DNA from: Candidatus Aenigmatarchaeota archaeon
GTDB lineage: Archaea; Aenigmatarchaeota; Aenigmatarchaeia; Aenigmatarchaeales; JACQIB01
Length of the DNA: 64,000 bases
Assembly: GCA_016198755.1 (NCBI GenBank)
Contig: JACQIB010000002.1
Span: forward strand, 32,001 to 96,000
Reading direction: 5' to 3'
The notes below the pieces were generated by a model. It was not told where the DNA came from and searched no databases. It worked only from the letters and a program-made list of their open reading frames with translations. A program made the translations under genes and the position numbers. Of this stretch, positions 27,283 through 33,978 are shown piece after piece (the first letter of the stretch is position 1; each line of letters begins with the position of its first letter).

Positions 27283-27954
27283 TTATCCCTTATAATCTCT
27301 TATTCCTTTTGAATAAATCTCAAATTCCACTCCCCTTTCCTCTGGCAGGCTTCTGGCCTTTTTTATAACTGCAAGCCTTCTTCCAGGTTTTCCAACATGA
27401 AACAGTTCTATAATATTCTTGCTCCACCATTTTACAATTGAGCTCCCGCTCATTTCCAGCCTGCCAGTCTTCGGGTTCTCATACACCTGATTTGTTATAA
27501 TAACAGGTATTTTGTTTGTTCGCGCTATTTTTGAGAGTACAGATAACTGAGTTGCCAGCTCCCTTATGGCTGTTTTTGCATTCTTTTCCTCTATATGAAC
27601 TCTCCATAAAGCTGCTATGCTATCCACTATAATAAGTCCTATATCCCTTTTCCTTGAAATAACTTCAGCCTTTTTCACGGCTTCCATTTGTTCCTCCCAT
27701 GTTTTTGGTTCAAGTAAAATTATCTTTTTTCCAACTTTCCCTCCATCTGCTATCTGATTTAATCTTTCCACTGAAAATCCCCCCTCAGTATCTATAAACA
27801 GTACTTTTTTCCCTCTTCCAACAGCAGAAACAGCACTAAGCATTGAAATCTGGCTCTTCCCAACAGCCGGAGGCCCGAAAAAGTTTGTAACACATCCATC
27901 TTCTACCCCACCCCCCAAAAGCCTGTCTATCGGAGTGCATACAGAAAGCCGCAT
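27283..27954 (-). CDS. radB: DNA repair and recombination protein RadB
   Basis: IDRLLGGG, GPPAVGKS Walker A, IDTEGGFS, IIVDS, ITNQVY. Short RecA core without the RadA N-domain. Confidence 0.88.
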   Translation of the reverse strand: MRLSVCTPIDRLLGGGVEDGCVTNFFGPPAVGKSQISMLSAVSAVGRGKKVLFIDTEGGFSVERLNQIADGGKVGKKIILLEPKTWEEQMEAVKKAEVISRKRDIGLIIVDSIAALWRVHIEEKNAKTAIRELATQLSVLSKIARTNKIPVIITNQVYENPKTGRLEMSGSSIVKWWSKNIIELFHVGKPGRRLAVIKKARSLPEERGVEFEIYSKGIRDYKG

Positions 27955-28515: not shown

Positions 28516-28535
28516 GGATACCAAAAGTGAGGAAA

Positions 28536-28883
28536 ATGCAGATTGAAATAAGAAAGAAAGGACCGGAAACTGCCATTCTGATTAGTTTTGACACGAATAC
28601 TGAAAGCTTCAAGTCTCCGTATGAAAGGAACAAGTTCTTTTCCGAGCTTCATGGGAGAAAGCAAATTGTTATAAACCAGTCAGGTAGATATGTTTACCAT
28701 AGACCAGGGCTTATGGATGAAATACCGCATATAGACGTGGACAGGTCCGTTTTCATAGTTGCGATGGAACATATGAAAAGAATGGAAGAGTTTTTCCATG
28801 ACTGGCAGAAGAATGTAATGTTCAAAACATTCCCCGTTTTACTTAGCAGGGAAGAAGCAGAAGAACTAAAGGAGGAAGAATAA
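28536..28883 (+). CDS. Hypothetical protein, possible Cas2/VapD/PaaX-like ferredoxin fold; first gene of cdc48 operon
   Basis: ILISFD...ERNKFFSELHG...RSVFIV pattern. GAGG RBS before ATG 28536. Stop is 1 bp before cdc48. Confidence 0.7.
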   Translation: MQIEIRKKGPETAILISFDTNTESFKSPYERNKFFSELHGRKQIVINQSGRYVYHRPGLMDEIPHIDVDRSVFIVAMEHMKRMEEFFHDWQKNVMFKTFPVLLSREEAEELKEEE

Positions 28884-28884
28884 T

Positions 28885-31170
28885 ATGTTAAAAGAACCGC
28901 AGCCAGAGGGAGTGAAGCTAAAGGTAGGAGAATTGACAGGAAGGGAGGATTTTGGAAGGGGTATTGCTAGATTGGATGCTAATACAATGAAAGCCATAAG
29001 TGTAAAAGAAGGGGATGTTATTGAGATTAGAGGAAAGAGAACAACAGCAGCAATAGCTGTGCGTTCTTATCCGGCGGATGTGGGTCTGAATATTGTAAGG
29101 ATTGACGGGCTTGTAAGGAAGAATTGCGGAACTTCTATCGGGGAAGGTGTTATTGTTGTCAAGGCAAATGCAAAGGAAGCAAAGAAAATTGTTTTGGCTC
29201 CGGCTGAAAAAGGGTATATACTCAGGGTTTCCCCCAACCTTTTGAAGCAAAATCTTTTCATGAGACCAATGGTAAAGGGAGATCTTATAATTGCAAATCC
29301 AGTTTTCCGCAGCCGCAGGGGAGGAGGAGATGTTTTTGAACAGTTTTTTGGCGTTCCAATGGAGGAAGTTTTCCTTCCTTTAGGAACAGAAACAAGGTTG
29401 GCTGTTGTTAAAACAGTTCCTGAAGGAGCAGTGCAAATAACTGAAATGACAGAGCTTGAGCTTTTGCCGGAAGCAACAGAACTTGAGGAGGGGAAAGTCC
29501 AGACAGTAACATATGAGGATATTGGAGGACTAGGAGAGATTGTGCCAAAAATCCGCGAGATGATAGAAGTTCCATTGCGTCACCCTGAAGTTTTTGAGCG
29601 TTTAGGAGTAGAACCTCCAAAGGGGGTTTTGCTGCATGGTCCGCCTGGTTCAGGAAAAACTTTGCTTGCAAAAGCAGTTGCAAATGAATCCGGTGCCTAT
29701 TTTATTTCAGTTGCAGGCCCAGAACTGGTGAGCAAATGGTATGGTGGTTCTGAGGAGAATCTTAGGAAAGTATTTGAAGAGGCTGAAAAGAATGCACCCA
29801 CAATTATTTTCTTTGACGAGATTGATGCTATAGCCCCAAAGAGGGAGGAGGTTTCAGGGGAGGTTGAAAGGAGAATGGTTTCTCAGTTACTAACTTTAAT
29901 GGACGGTCTAAAAAGCAGGGGAAGAACAATAGTAATTGCAGCTACTAACAGGCCAAATAGCTTGGATCCAGCTCTGAGAAGGGGAGGGAGGTTTGACAGG
30001 GAACTGGAGATACCAGTGCCTGATAAAAAGGGCAGGAAAGAGATTTTGCAGATTCACACACGCCATATGCCTATGGATGGAGTGGATCTTGATAAATTAG
30101 CTGAGATAACATATGGTTATGTGGGGGCTGACGTTTCAGCTCTTGTAAAGGAAGCTGCAATGCATGCTTTGCGAAGGGTTTTACCAGAGGTTTCTGCCTT
30201 AAAGGAGGATGAAGCACTTCCAAAAGAATTGCTGGAAAAACTAAAAGTTACAAGTGAGGACTTTGAATTTGCAATGCGCATGGTTCAGCCTTCTGCGATG
30301 AGGGAAGTTCTAATAGAGATACCTAAAGTTAAATGGGCTGATGTTGGAGGATTGGAAAATGTAAAGGAACTTCTGAAGGAAGCTGTTGACTGGCCGCTTA
30401 AAAATGCGGATGCTTTCAAACGCATTGGGATAAAGCCGCCAAAGGGAATAATGCTTTATGGTCCGCCCGGATGCGGGAAAACATTTATTGTGAAAGCTCT
30501 TGCAAACGAAGCTGGTGCAAACTTTATTTCAGTAAAGGGTCCTGAATTGCTTTCCAAATGGGTTGGGGAAAGTGAACAGCATTTAAGGGATGTTTTCCGC
30601 AGAGCAAAACAAGTCGCTCCATGTATAATTTTCTTTGATGAAATAGATTCTCTAGCTCCAAGAAGGGGGTCTGATGCAGGGAATAGAGTAACAGAACAGG
30701 TTGTTTCCCAGCTGCTTACAGAAATGAATGGAATAGAGAACATGGAAGGTGTAATGGTTATAGCAGCCACAAACAGGCCGGATATTATTGATCCAGCACT
30801 CCTAAGGCCAGGGAGGTTTGACAGGTTAATTTATGTCCCTGCACCAGATGAAAAAACAAGGCTGGAAATTTTAAAGGTTCATACAAAATCAATGCCGCTT
30901 TCGAAAGATTTATCTATGGAGAAACTGGCAAAACAGACAGACGGATACTCAGGAGCGGATTTGGAGGCTGTTGTGAGAGAAGCCGGATTAAATGCTTTGA
31001 GGGAAAATATGAAAGCAAAGGAAATAACGAAAAAACACTTTGACGAATCTCTGAAGGAAATAAAACCATCAATAACAGAAGATATATTCATGAAATACCA
31101 GAAAATAGTTGAAGATGTAAAGAAAACAAAGCTGGAAGAACATGAAAAATCAAGCAGATATATAGGGTGA
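28885..31170 (+). CDS. cdc48: CDC48/VCP family AAA+ ATPase
   Basis: N-domain plus two AAA modules ([14 protein letters not shown] and [14 protein letters not shown]), second-region-of-homology motifs [10 protein letters not shown] and [10 protein letters not shown]. Confidence 0.97.
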
Positions 31171-31175
31171 TAAAA

Positions 31176-31520
31176 ATGGTAGAAAAAAGAATTAACGTAA
31201 GTATAGACCACACAGATCCAACATTTTTTTGTGACAGGGTAGTTGTTTCCCATAGTCCCACAAAATTTATACTGGATTTTACTCAAACAAGCCCAAGGTT
31301 CGATTTCAACGGTGAAAACCTTCAGGAAGCACTGGTTGTAAAACACAGGACCATAATGCTGGATCCCATGGTTGCTAAAGATTTTCTAAATGCTTTACAT
31401 GAAAATGTAGCAAAATTCGAGAAAGCTTTTAAGAAAATAGAAGTTCCAAAACAAAAGAAACATTCACATCCAATAAAGGAATTTCAGAGGCCAACAGAAC
31501 CCAGCAAATATATAGGATAA
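31176..31520 (+). CDS. DUF3467-like protein
   Basis: VVSHSPTKFILDF...IMLDPMVAKDFLNALHENVAKFEKAF pattern matches my recollection of DUF3467. GGTGA RBS overlaps the cdc48 stop. Confidence 0.7.
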   Translation: MVEKRINVSIDHTDPTFFCDRVVVSHSPTKFILDFTQTSPRFDFNGENLQEALVVKHRTIMLDPMVAKDFLNALHENVAKFEKAFKKIEVPKQKKHSHPIKEFQRPTEPSKYIG

Positions 31521-31523
31521 AAA

Positions 31524-31742
31524 TCAGGCAGCTTTTCTTGCGAGGAGCACATCCTCGCGTTTAATTGTTTTCCTACCGGCGTGCATTGCATACTTTAAGG
31601 AATCTTTTGCAACTTCCAGCCCCCTTTCCATTAGAATCTCTGAAAGGGCGCGTGCTGCACTATCAGAAACTCTCTGTGCTCCGGCCTGCTTGAAAATATC
31701 AACCATTGGAGCTGCTGCAATAATACTCCTCTTCCTTGGCAT
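31524..31742 (-). CDS. Archaeal histone (HMf/HTk nucleosomal type)
   Basis: AAPMVDIFKQAGAQRVSDSA...AMHAGRKTIKREDV histone fold with RKTxxxxD clamp and HAGR. 72 aa. Confidence 0.92.
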   Translation of the reverse strand: MPRKRSIIAAAPMVDIFKQAGAQRVSDSAARALSEILMERGLEVAKDSLKYAMHAGRKTIKREDVLLARKAA

Positions 31743-31791: not shown

Positions 31792-32688
31792 TCAGAGCAA
31801 AGTTGTAACAAAAGGTTTCTCACCCACAATTATAGTGTGTTCAAACTGAGCAACCATTCCATTTCCTGTTTCTTTCAGTATCTTGTACGGATAAACTGAA
31901 ACAATAGATGAGAGCTCTTTCAGTGCAAGCTCTGTTTTAACAGAGCCAAATAGCTTCTGAAGCCAGCGTTTTGCAAACGGTAACCTTGCAAAGTCTGTTT
32001 TTCCAAGTTCCATTATTTTTCTGGCTTCCATTGTTCTGACAGGCCTGTCCATTATCCAGCGGAATATTGTTGCAGGATCCACTTCCTTAACCATACCAGC
32101 CCCATTTGTGCAAAAAGGCTCACAAGCATAAACTTTTCCATCATCTATAACACCAGCAGAATTAGTCTTAACATTCTGTATCATAACACCAGCGTGCAGA
32201 TTATACCTTTCAACACCATGCCCAGTCAGGTTTCTAATTGATTTGAACCCAAATTCTTTTGCAACCCCTTCTATTGTCTCTCCAATATCAGCTATCTGAG
32301 TTCCCGGTGTAAACATAGGCAGAGCTGAGGAAAGCATCTTTTTTGCACATACTATTAGTTCATCCTCCCCAGCAGGTCTGACCGTAATGGCAGCATCAGC
32401 TATAAACCCGTCTACATGAGCACCTATATCCAGCTTTACATAATCCGTTTCTTTAACAAAAATCCCATCTCCAACTAATGGACTGTAGTGAGCTGCAATT
32501 TCATTTATGGAAATATTTGCCGGAAAAGCAGGCTTCCCACCCATTTCCACCATTTTTTTCTCCACAGCTTCAGCAATATCAAAAATCATAGCACCTTCCT
32601 TTATCATACCCTTTCCCAATTTCAGAGCTTCAGCAGTTATTCTTCCGGCTTTCTTTAATTTTTCTATCTCTTCAGGCAGCAACACCAT
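31792..32688 (-). CDS. map: Methionine aminopeptidase type II
   Basis: PAFPANIS, AAHYSP, KLDIGAHVDGFIADAA, LTGH, LHAG, CEPF, AQFEHT. Confidence 0.95.
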   Translation of the reverse strand: MVLLPEEIEKLKKAGRITAEALKLGKGMIKEGAMIFDIAEAVEKKMVEMGGKPAFPANISINEIAAHYSPLVGDGIFVKETDYVKLDIGAHVDGFIADAAITVRPAGEDELIVCAKKMLSSALPMFTPGTQIADIGETIEGVAKEFGFKSIRNLTGHGVERYNLHAGVMIQNVKTNSAGVIDDGKVYACEPFCTNGAGMVKEVDPATIFRWIMDRPVRTMEARKIMELGKTDFARLPFAKRWLQKLFGSVKTELALKELSSIVSVYPYKILKETGNGMVAQFEHTIIVGEKPFVTTLL

Positions 32689-32742
32689 AAGCAGAGAATA
32701 CAAGAGAGCGGCTATAAATAGGATTATTAACAGAATGAATTC

Positions 32743-33978
32743 ATGGAAAAAGCAAAAACAGACAAATACCCAAGAATAATACTTGATCCCGTTCACGGAT
32801 TCATAGAACTCTCTCCTCTACAAGATGAGCTTTTAGCCCAGCCAGAACTGCAGAGAATGAGATGGGTAAAACAGCTGGGCCTTATAGATCTTATTTTTCC
32901 AGGTGCTCATCATTCAAGAATAGAGCATTGTTTAGGATCCTCTTTCGTTGCCACTAAAATAGCAGAACATCTAAAACTGCCTGAAAAAGAAAGGGAGCTT
33001 GTGCAGGCAGCGGGTATTTTACATGATATAGGGCATACACCCTTCTCCCATGTTCTGGAGCCAGTTCTCCCTAAAGACAGCATGGAGACTACAAGAGACA
33101 TGATAGAAGGAAGAACAGAAATCCCCCTGCCAAATGCAGGACATATACCAGAGATATTGAAAAGGCATGGTATAAACCCGAAAGATGTTTCAGACCTTAT
33201 CTGCCATGCCTATAAAGGCAAAAAATATCTGCAGCAGATAATTTTCAGTGAAATAGACTGCGATCAAATAGACTATCTTGCCCGCGATTCTTACTATACT
33301 GGCTCAACTCATGGCCAGATACATGTGCAAAGATTACTCTCTATAATGAGGCTGGTTGATAATGAAATCTGCTTTGTGGAAAAGGGGCTGACAGAAATTG
33401 AAGAATTCCTCGTTGGAAGGGAGCATATGTACACTTCTATCTACCTGCACCATACAGGCAATGCAGCAGCAAAAATGTTGCTCCGTGCTTTTGAAAGCCT
33501 GAAAGACAAAATACCCAACTTCCTTTATATGACAGATGCAGAGGTCATAGCTTCTCTGCTCAACGGAACAAAATACACACGTGACATTATGCAGAGGATC
33601 CTTTATAGGAGGCTGTTTAAACGGGCATTCGAGATAAGCTCAAGAAAGTTTACAAAAGCAGATATAGAACTTGTTAAAAAGGCTTCAAAAATAGGGGAAA
33701 AGAAGCTAGAAGCTGAGCTTACAAAGAAAGCAGGCATACCAGAAGGCTATTTGTTTGTACATTTGCCTGCAAATGCACTCTCCCTATCAGAGCCAAGAAT
33801 GAAGAATTTTAATATAAAATTTGTCAGAAAAGACAATTCATCCATAAATGTTACAGAGATATCCACACTTGTGCAGGCATTAGCAAACCGTGTTACTCCA
33901 AAAGAACTTTTTGCTGTCTATACACCTTTAGAATACAGGGAAAAAGCAGCTTCATCAGCACGTGCATTTTTCGCCTAA
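32743..33978 (+). CDS. HD-domain phosphohydrolase (SAMHD1/dNTP triphosphohydrolase-like)
   Basis: DPVHG, LQRMRWVKQLG, HSRIEHCLG, LHDIGHTPFSH, DCDQIDYLARD, IYLHH. Confidence 0.88.
   Translation: MEKAKTDKYPRIILDPVHGFIELSPLQDELLAQPELQRMRWVKQLGLIDLIFPGAHHSRIEHCLGSSFVATKIAEHLKLPEKERELVQAAGILHDIGHTPFSHVLEPVLPKDSMETTRDMIEGRTEIPLPNAGHIPEILKRHGINPKDVSDLICHAYKGKKYLQQIIFSEIDCDQIDYLARDSYYTGSTHGQIHVQRLLSIMRLVDNEICFVEKGLTEIEEFLVGREHMYTSIYLHHTGNAAAKMLLRAFESLKDKIPNFLYMTDAEVIASLLNGTKYTRDIMQRILYRRLFKRAFEISSRKFTKADIELVKKASKIGEKKLEAELTKKAGIPEGYLFVHLPANALSLSEPRMKNFNIKFVRKDNSSINVTEISTLVQALANRVTPKELFAVYTPLEYREKAASSARAFFA

Follow-up and report, generated by a model that had tools for sequence, protein, structure and literature searches.

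HbYX (hydrophobic-tyrosine-any residue) endings, carried by PAN, archaeal Cdc48/VAT, AMA, PbaA/PbaB and Rpt2/3/5, are described as tri-residue signals with an essential Tyr and a free C-terminus, borne on a flexible tail (PMC3493965, PMC3605417). Removal of the last 12 residues of Thermoplasma Cdc48, which ends in L-Y-L, is reported to abolish 20S activation (PMC3493965), and Pyrococcus furiosus PbaB, which ends in G-Y-L, is reported neither to bind nor to activate the 20S once its last three residues are cut off or the alpha subunit carries the exchange K68A (PMC3605417). An HbYX ending occupies the pocket between two alpha subunits and thereby opens the gate. Cdc48 and PbaB are the two non-PAN families with shown C-terminal docking on the 20S alpha ring. 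A further signal, the Y-Phi motif, was described by Opoku-Nsiah et al. (2022) for the human 20S, where a bond between the Tyr at P3 and alpha Glu25 is proposed, P2 is an aromatic Phe or Tyr, and P1 is small, with Ala or Thr preferred (PMC8907193). In the ClpP system, the IGF loop of ClpX or ClpA docks in hydrophobic sites of ClpP, and the hexamer leaves one of the seven sites empty (PMC9035409). Here we analyze a cdc48 gene and its 3' neighbor, encoding a small DUF3467 protein, in a 64,000-nt stretch of DNA (the window; contig JACQIB010000002.1, 32001-96000) from a Candidatus Aenigmatarchaeota archaeon, a DPANN-type organism whose genome comprises six contigs and 890,842 bases, is 89% complete and has 39-41% G+C. 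Coordinates are those of the window unless stated otherwise. Both proteins end in Tyr-Ile-Gly (YIG), and sequence comparison suggests that this ending, generalized as Y-Phi-G-COOH, is probably the form that the HbYX tail, which docks on the 20S alpha ring, takes in this lineage, and that DUF3467 is probably a small proteostasis factor with the same docking site.

The cdc48 gene closes with AGC AGA TAT ATA GGG TGA (S-R-Y-I-G-stop, 31153-31170) and the DUF3467 gene with AGC AAA TAT ATA GGA TAA (S-K-Y-I-G-stop, 31503-31520). As a preliminary description of this DNA had pointed out, the two 18-nt gene ends are identical at 15 of 18 positions; three bases differ. The same description had called the second gene DUF3467-like, and its product indeed matches PF11950 (E 1.2e-9, 38.6 bits versus the Pfam gathering cut-off of 25), as a single-copy protein of the genome. 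The first product belongs to the Cdc48/VAT group, with 1060.9 bits against the TIGR01243 CDC48 profile (cut-off 802.65) and the Pfam domains CDC48_N, CDC48_2, two AAA and two AAA_lid_3, that is, an N domain followed by two AAA modules. The description had also mentioned, with reserve, similar endings on archaeal PAC2-like proteins, and this proved accurate for the study genome itself: a third YIG protein, of 257 aa and encoded on another contig (C5:160958-161731, minus strand), ends in L-K-Y-I-G and is assigned to the PAC2/PbaB-like family by both PF09754 (142.8 bits versus 25.8) and TIGR00162 (225.7 bits versus 200). A stop codon directly follows the Gly codon in Cdc48, DUF3467, PAC2 and all relatives listed, leaving a free C-terminal carboxylate. 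Among 901 non-overlapping proxy genes of the study genome, YIG endings occur in these three proteins, against 0.12-0.17 expected (Poisson P(>=3) ~7e-4), and no further Y-hydrophobic-G ending was found among the 901. A looser set of 2717 open reading frames (ORFs) of at least 60 aa yielded a fourth YIG ending, on an apparently spurious 60-aa ORF. The shared tail is therefore confirmed as real and lies far beyond chance, and its conservation in relatives is a stronger argument than this in-genome statistic.

PF11950 was found in 30 of 61 relatives, the study genome included, and all 30 proteins end in YIG, which favors the reading given in the preliminary description. Cdc48 is encoded directly 5' of DUF3467 in 21 of the 30 loci, ending in YIG in 20 and in YVG in one, and in five genomes without a DUF3467 match it ends in YIG (four) or YTG (one). 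PAC2 was found in 57/61 relatives; the 30 loci returned, many from genomes lacking DUF3467, all encode a YIG ending. Phylum-wide, PF11950 occurs in 95 of 301 genomes, and 33 further phylum DUF3467 proteins end in YIG (29), YVG (2), YIE (1) or YIQ (1); these were taken from 40 fetched loci, of which seven (L094-L100, one family with weak Pfam matches and without a match to the hidden Markov model built from our alignment A1) were left out. When 1.84 billion representatives were searched exhaustively with HMMER, 132 DUF3467 matches were obtained. Ninety-one end in Y-x-G (YIG 42, YFG 18, YMG 14, YLG 7, YVG 6, YTG 2, YSG 1, YYG 1) and nine more in Y-I-[ARS], and the remaining representatives include fragments, bacterial-type proteins and the top match, P0002, a 1137-aa tandem repeat that we judged spurious and that is counted among the 41/132 not ending in Y-x-G. 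A word-index search with DUF3467 gave one near-identical match only. In alignment A1 a conserved core of ~95 residues is followed by a linker of very variable length and then by the tail. Since the A1 rows were mostly picked from tail-bearing proteins, the invariance of Tyr in that alignment is partly by choice, and the unbiased counts are those of the 30/30, 91/132 and 33-protein sets. Across the phylum the tail is held fixed in the Cdc48, PAC2 and DUF3467 families, and the archaeal DUF3467 consensus is Y-[IFMLV]-G at the extreme end.

The same type of ending extends to other archaea. A species-genome scan with library protein P0062 returned 51 named loci, eight of them archaeal-type and labeled (automatically, as metagenome-assembled genomes, MAGs) Euryarchaeota, Methanobacteriota, Methanosarcinales, Woesearchaeota or Nanoarchaeota; the eight DUF3467 proteins end in P-S-Y-M-G, P-[SN]-Y-L-G or Q-S-Y-F-G. 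In five further archaeal genomes (loci L114, L116, L117, L118 and L120) Cdc48 ends in P-x-Y-[MYLFA]-G. The four of these that have a PAC2 match each encode two PAC2 paralogues ending in S/D-Y-[ILV]-G, one x-Y-I-G and one S-Y-[LV]-G, together with a PAN-like ATPase of 380-386 aa that ends in M-F-G. One of the five genomes (G318, via L117) carries an unpublished flag; it contributes a single row per family, and the tail pattern stands without it. In a second phylum, that of genome G315, PAC2 was found in 57 of 61 genomes, and the proteins of newly returned loci end in Y-[IFLV]-G in 29 cases out of 29. The signal in these sequences is thus a free end with Gly last, a hydrophobic residue before it and Tyr at -3, and Cdc48 and PAC2 use it in two or more phyla of archaea with small genomes. 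The residues preceding Tyr also appear to covary between Cdc48 and DUF3467 by clade. In the order of the study genome DUF3467 ends in [ST]-[RK]-Y-I-G and Cdc48 in [SA]-[RK]-Y-I-G; in family f19 the endings are E-[GSVE]-Y-I-G and, in three of four Cdc48 proteins, acidic-[TG]-D-Y-[LV]-G; in a third group they are P-S-Y-[ML]-G and P-x-Y-Phi-G. Such covariation would be expected if both tails fit one site, and it offers a lead in that direction. Two side observations concern ATPases of these relatives: the f19 genomes (L196-L199, L191) encode a 377-385-aa AAA protein ending in ...Y-E-E-W-G-x-x-[LF]-G-x, with neither a Y-Phi-G nor an HbYX tail, and in two relatives of the study genome (G008:C47 and G043:C5; loci L243, L245, L248 and L251) the open frames around Cdc48 span 1690 and 1255 aa versus ~770 elsewhere, possibly owing to an intein or a fused neighbor.

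The study genome encodes one alpha and one beta proteasome subunit. Cdc48 is its only strong PF00004 match, every other AAA match scoring at most 52 bits, and neither PAN nor a canonical HbYX-bearing AAA protein was found in the 89% of the genome that is assembled. The comparison with PAN C-termini suggested in the preliminary description thus leaves the YIG-tailed Cdc48 as the only candidate proteasomal ATPase found. Canonical HbYX-pattern endings occur on 26 proxy genes, none of which encodes an AAA ATPase as far as checked, and Cdc48 and PAC2 here retain no canonical HbYX ending of their own. A 580-aa protein ending in Y-F-L was considered as a second proteasomal ATPase and rejected, because it is ABCE1/RLI. 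On the receiving side, the alpha-subunit gate and pocket residues Y10, D11, R12, P19, G21, E27, Y28 and K68 are invariant in 31/31 close homologues and align with a +2 offset to the Thermoplasma chain 1pma (K68 here being K66 there). Alpha position 83 is Phe, likewise in all 31, and the two Protein Data Bank (PDB) chains compared have Ile or Leu. An ESMFold2 complex of three alpha copies (from alignment A4) with DUF3467 residues 76-114 (from A1) gave ipSAE values of 0.02 and 0.00 versus a mark of 0.32, in a run that had no controls and a 39-residue, mostly disordered partner unlike the calibration cases; we take this outcome as neutral on binding.

Compared with the described signals, the Y-I-G tail shares with HbYX the tri-residue format, the position at the extreme C-terminus, the presence on flexible tails of Cdc48 and PAC2-family proteins, and a target whose HbYX-contacting alpha residues are conserved in the study genome. 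The third-from-end position, small or hydrophobic in HbYX, is Tyr here, which the pattern published in PMC3493965, [LVIMGAPFYW][FY]x, allows. That pattern as a whole misses the tail: Tyr stands at -3, it is followed by an aliphatic residue (Ile here; F, M, L, V, Y or A in other genomes), and the last position is usually Gly. The resemblance to the Y-Phi motif is closer, with Tyr at P3 in all three families, a hydrophobic P2, a small P1 and conservation of Glu25 as E27 (motif as given in PMC8907193). The two nevertheless differ in that the Y-Phi motif belongs to the human 20S, whereas the carriers here are archaeal and have Gly at P1 and, for the most part, Ile at P2; only some relatives show Phe or Tyr there (YFG in 18/132 DUF3467 representatives, YFG or YYG in Cdc48). 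By sequence, then, the tail appears closer to the Y-Phi motif than to HbYX, yet differs from it at P2 and P1. The PAN-like M-F-G ending shows that Gly at P1 with Phe at P2 is accepted in these organisms, and on this ground we read Y-Phi-G in the Y-Phi register. The tail would insert into the pockets between 20S alpha subunits, with the terminal Gly carboxylate pairing with alpha Lys K68 (K66 in Thermoplasma numbering), the hydrophobic residue at -2 occupying the place of PAN's Phe (the P2 site) and the invariant Tyr at -3 reaching the conserved alpha Glu E27. Several further features support this proposal: all three tail-bearing proteins of the study genome are proteostasis proteins; the two families sharing the tail with DUF3467 are those known to bind the 20S by their C-termini; the archaeal motif is always found at a free end, as expected of a carboxylate-dependent motif; and the DUF3467 gene is packed with cdc48 or, in other lineages, lies in grpE-dnaK-dnaJ clusters.

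DUF3467 carries the same tail, so it would be expected on the same alpha-ring pockets as Cdc48 and PAC2. The AlphaFold2 model of the protein (m3645925eebc4; mean predicted local distance difference test score, pLDDT, 87.2) has a compact core at residues 21-84 with pLDDT 93-98; past residue 84 it runs as an unstructured charged stretch up to the tail, with pLDDT 64-70 in the last three 10-residue blocks. A Foldseek search with the model against the PDB returned nothing at E <= 0.001. A wide structural (VIA) search gave middling matches only, to COMM domains (Z 6.4, root mean square deviation 2.2 over 58 residues for the best, too low a score for a reliable match), PUR-alpha repeats (Z 5.3) and PC4 (Z ~4.1). 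All three modules pair as interlocked dimers, but common arrangements reach Z scores of this size as well. A 202-aa library protein consists of two DUF3467 copies in tandem, which fits a pairing module, and the modeled beta3-alpha domain of DUF3467 is probably self-associating. This domain would bear the tail on a flexible basic linker of 25-45 residues. The protein would most likely act as a proteostasis co-factor that ties a chaperone or unfoldase to the protease, with Cdc48 as the partner here and Hsp70 in other lineages. For example, it might occupy a pocket that stays empty where hexameric Cdc48 meets the seven-membered alpha ring (6-on-7 mismatch), or it might deliver clients; activator, stabilizer and competitor are all candidate roles, as are the cap and the adaptor named in the preliminary description.

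PbaB, an ATP-independent activator and chaperone of the PAC2 family, offers the nearest functional model for such a role, being a non-ATPase that is described as reaching the 20S by flexible C-terminal 'tentacles' and as also holding unfolded proteins (PMC3605417). DUF3467 differs from it in having another and much smaller fold (beta3-alpha, 95 aa) and in occurring also in bacteria, and it is known here from sequence and model. Pbp11 (Q9UZY3) of the Thermococcales resembles DUF3467 as a small (11-kDa) orphan protein tied to the archaeal proteasome system (PMC9540759); it is a tRNA-binding protein with an OB fold, belongs to a different family and came to light through PAN, and the abstract of that report states no terminal docking tail. 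Our literature search on 'DUF3467' returned one passing mention, not on function, and none was found on a Y-Phi-G tail in the relevant Cdc48/Pba literature, which was partly covered.

Outside the order of the study genome, DUF3467 keeps other company. In family f19 the upstream genes encode a site-2-type peptidase M50 (4/4 scanned) and an HD hydrolase (2/2 scanned), and elsewhere MCM. GrpE, DnaK or DnaJ is encoded within two genes of DUF3467 in at least 15 of the 51 named loci, a lower bound because only 80 neighbors, partly picked by size, were scanned. Two archaeal MAGs have the order grpE-dnaK-DUF3467-dnaJ, and several bacteria of candidate phyla have grpE-DUF3467-dnaK; ftsZ lies 3' of DUF3467 in six loci labeled Saccharibacteria or Paceibacter. 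None of the 45 bacterial-type DUF3467 ORFs (loci L122-L164) ends in Y-x-G. Instead, 38 of them carry an [ILMV]-G-[FY] tripeptide one to five residues before the end, versus ~1% by chance, and ClpP is present in four of five genomes checked that have a bacterial-type DUF3467. This tripeptide is of the same type as that of the ClpX/ClpA IGF loop (PMC9035409) and likewise has no free-carboxylate dependence. In DUF3467 it sits in a short flexible tail; in ClpX, however, it lies in an internal loop of an ATPase, and the likeness is one of sequence only. In a quick maximum-likelihood tree of the core domain, with tails removed, a branch supported at 99% SH-aLRT (Shimodaira-Hasegawa-like approximate likelihood ratio test) separates 68 of 69 Y-x-G proteins from all 44 remaining proteins plus one long-branched Y-x-G row. 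The archaeal clade also contains the archaeal proteins from dnaK operons, which still end in P-S-Y-M-G; tail type thus goes with the domain of life, and hence with the resident protease, and not with the operon partner. One locus labeled Pacearchaeota (L151) has the grpE-DUF3467-dnaK arrangement with a bacterial-type tail, and its core is near-identical to that of Patescibacteria locus L143 and branches among bacteria, an anomaly that probably comes from mis-binning or transfer. A bolder extension, which we hold as speculative and rather unlikely, would make DUF3467 an ancient 'hand-off' quality-control factor of both domains. Its beta3-alpha domain would work with the local chaperone or unfoldase (Hsp70 in bacteria and many archaea, Cdc48 in Hsp70-less DPANN archaea), and its tail would be fitted to the resident protease (Y-Phi-G-COOH for the 20S, [ILMV]-G-[FY] for ClpP), possibly filling the site that a hexamer leaves empty on a heptamer.

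The shared ending could be read in other ways. Eukaryotic p97 has a C-terminus that is bound by cofactors with PUB and PUL domains, and by the same token the reader of Y-Phi-G might be a common partner at which Cdc48, PAC2 and DUF3467 meet, instead of the 20S alpha ring. The displacement of Tyr to -3 from -2 favors such a partner, as does the retention of M-F-G by the PAN-like ATPases of the same genomes, by which two tail codes coexist; the conserved gene directly 5' of cdc48, found there in 12/12 loci, could encode it. Against this stand the 20S as the only partner of PAC2/PbaB C-termini described in PMC3605417 and the lack of any canonical HbYX ending on Cdc48 or PAC2 that would otherwise serve 20S docking; no PUB- or PUL-like protein was seen, although no search was aimed at them. 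We regard this explanation as improbable. Neither are we inclined to put much weight on a role confined to the unfoldase or chaperone, in which the DUF3467 tail would mimic that of Cdc48 and so regulate Cdc48 (or Hsp70 in other lineages); pseudo-substrate and assembly factor are examples of such a role, and the resemblance to PAC2 would be secondary. Here the evidence is divided: the DUF3467 tail, including positions -4 and -5, is closest to the Cdc48 of the same clade and not to PAC2, and the gene shares an operon with cdc48 or with grpE, dnaK and dnaJ, yet members in archaeal dnaK operons keep the P-S-Y-M-G tail of their domain of life, the study genome (89% complete) has no Hsp70 match, and no site for its own tail is known on Cdc48. 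An origin of the shared ending by chance, or as a functionless by-product of composition and codon use, has in its favor the shortness of the tail (three to five residues) and the AT-richness of the genome. We give it practically no credence: three occurrences were seen where a fraction of one was expected, and conservation refutes it, since dozens of genomes keep the ending unchanged in three unrelated families, with linkers before it that vary freely.

Docking of Y-Phi-G on the alpha ring thus remains the reading that we prefer, and several points weigh against it. The comparative evidence is strong, but docking of the tail and of DUF3467 on the 20S is a prediction. The penultimate Tyr or Phe of HbYX, as defined in PMC3493965, is replaced here by Ile. 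In the clade whose PAN-like ATPase ends in the canonical M-F-G, Y-Phi-G could be a separate code for a separate site. The covariation between Cdc48 and DUF3467 is a lead and not a statistical test, because it involves three clades of related genomes. Only one of the weaker AAA matches in the study genome, the 580-aa ABCE1, has been identified, and at 89% genome completeness PAN or Hsp70 may lie outside the assembly. Linkage to cdc48, which the preliminary description had proposed to follow across DUF3467 homologues, held among same-order relatives (20 of 21) and failed as a property of the family, occurring in none of nine other-order genomes and in one of 33 further phylum loci, with Hsp70 operons in other lineages; it is a trait of one order. 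DUF3467 is also less widespread (95/301 phylum genomes) than PAC2 (57/61) or Cdc48 (10/10 checked) and is thus an accessory rather than a core part.

The features of the locus are collected in the table below. Whichever of the two possible DUF3467 starts applies (GTG 31167, overlapping the Cdc48 stop, or ATG 31176, 5 nt past it), cdc48 and the DUF3467 gene are packed as one operon; alignment with homologues favors the ATG. A convergent histone-fold gene ends at 31524, and the cdc48-DUF3467 transcription unit therefore stops there. The 118-aa ORF on the 5' side had no match in Pfam and NCBIfam searches, and its AlphaFold2 model is of low confidence (pLDDT 60). Its homologues occur in 50 of 61 relatives and directly 5' of Cdc48 in all 12 loci examined, including five genomes without a DUF3467 match. 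It is probably the first gene of the cdc48 operon and a candidate for a Cdc48 cofactor. Beside the cluster, a RadB/Rad51-like protein (27283-27954, minus strand) ends in D-Y-K-G, which differs narrowly from the tail by having Lys at -2. Peptidase_M24 (methionine-aminopeptidase-like) genes also recur near DUF3467: one is convergent and just 3' of it in locus L118 (6365-7291, minus strand), which belongs to a different clade, and another lies 5' of a bacterial DUF3467 in L131; the window ORF at 31792-32796 (minus strand) resembles a counterpart of the L118 gene by position and length only.

Features of the cdc48-DUF3467 locus, in window coordinates
Feature	Position	Strand	Basis and remarks
118-aa ORF, no known family	28527..28883	+	stop 1 nt before the cdc48 ATG; homologues in relatives
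Cdc48/VAT-type AAA+ unfoldase, 761 aa	28885..31170	+	TIGR01243 and Pfam
Cdc48 C-terminal tail, S-R-Y-I-G	31153..31167	+	stop at 31168-31170
DUF3467 protein, 114 aa from ATG 31176 (117 aa from GTG 31167)	31176..31520	+	PF11950; stop included
DUF3467 globular core, residues 21-84, three long beta strands then one long helix	31236..31427	+	AlphaFold2 model
DUF3467 flexible, mostly basic linker, residues 85-109	31428..31502	+	without secondary structure; length varies among homologues
DUF3467 C-terminal tail, S-K-Y-I-G	31503..31517	+	stop at 31518-31520

If the proposed docking is correct, the HbYX rule of a penultimate Tyr or Phe overlooks the whole set of proteasome partners in two or more phyla of archaea with small genomes. 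According to PMC3493965, on a 2012 data set, all archaea possess an AAA protein with a canonical HbYX ending; this fails for the study genome as far as it is assembled. The DUF3467 family would gain a testable assignment, as a proteostasis factor that docks by its tail and has links to Cdc48 or Hsp70 operons, and a small non-ATPase equipped with the docking tail of an ATPase would provide a handle on labile Cdc48-20S complexes and on the 6-to-7 symmetry mismatch.

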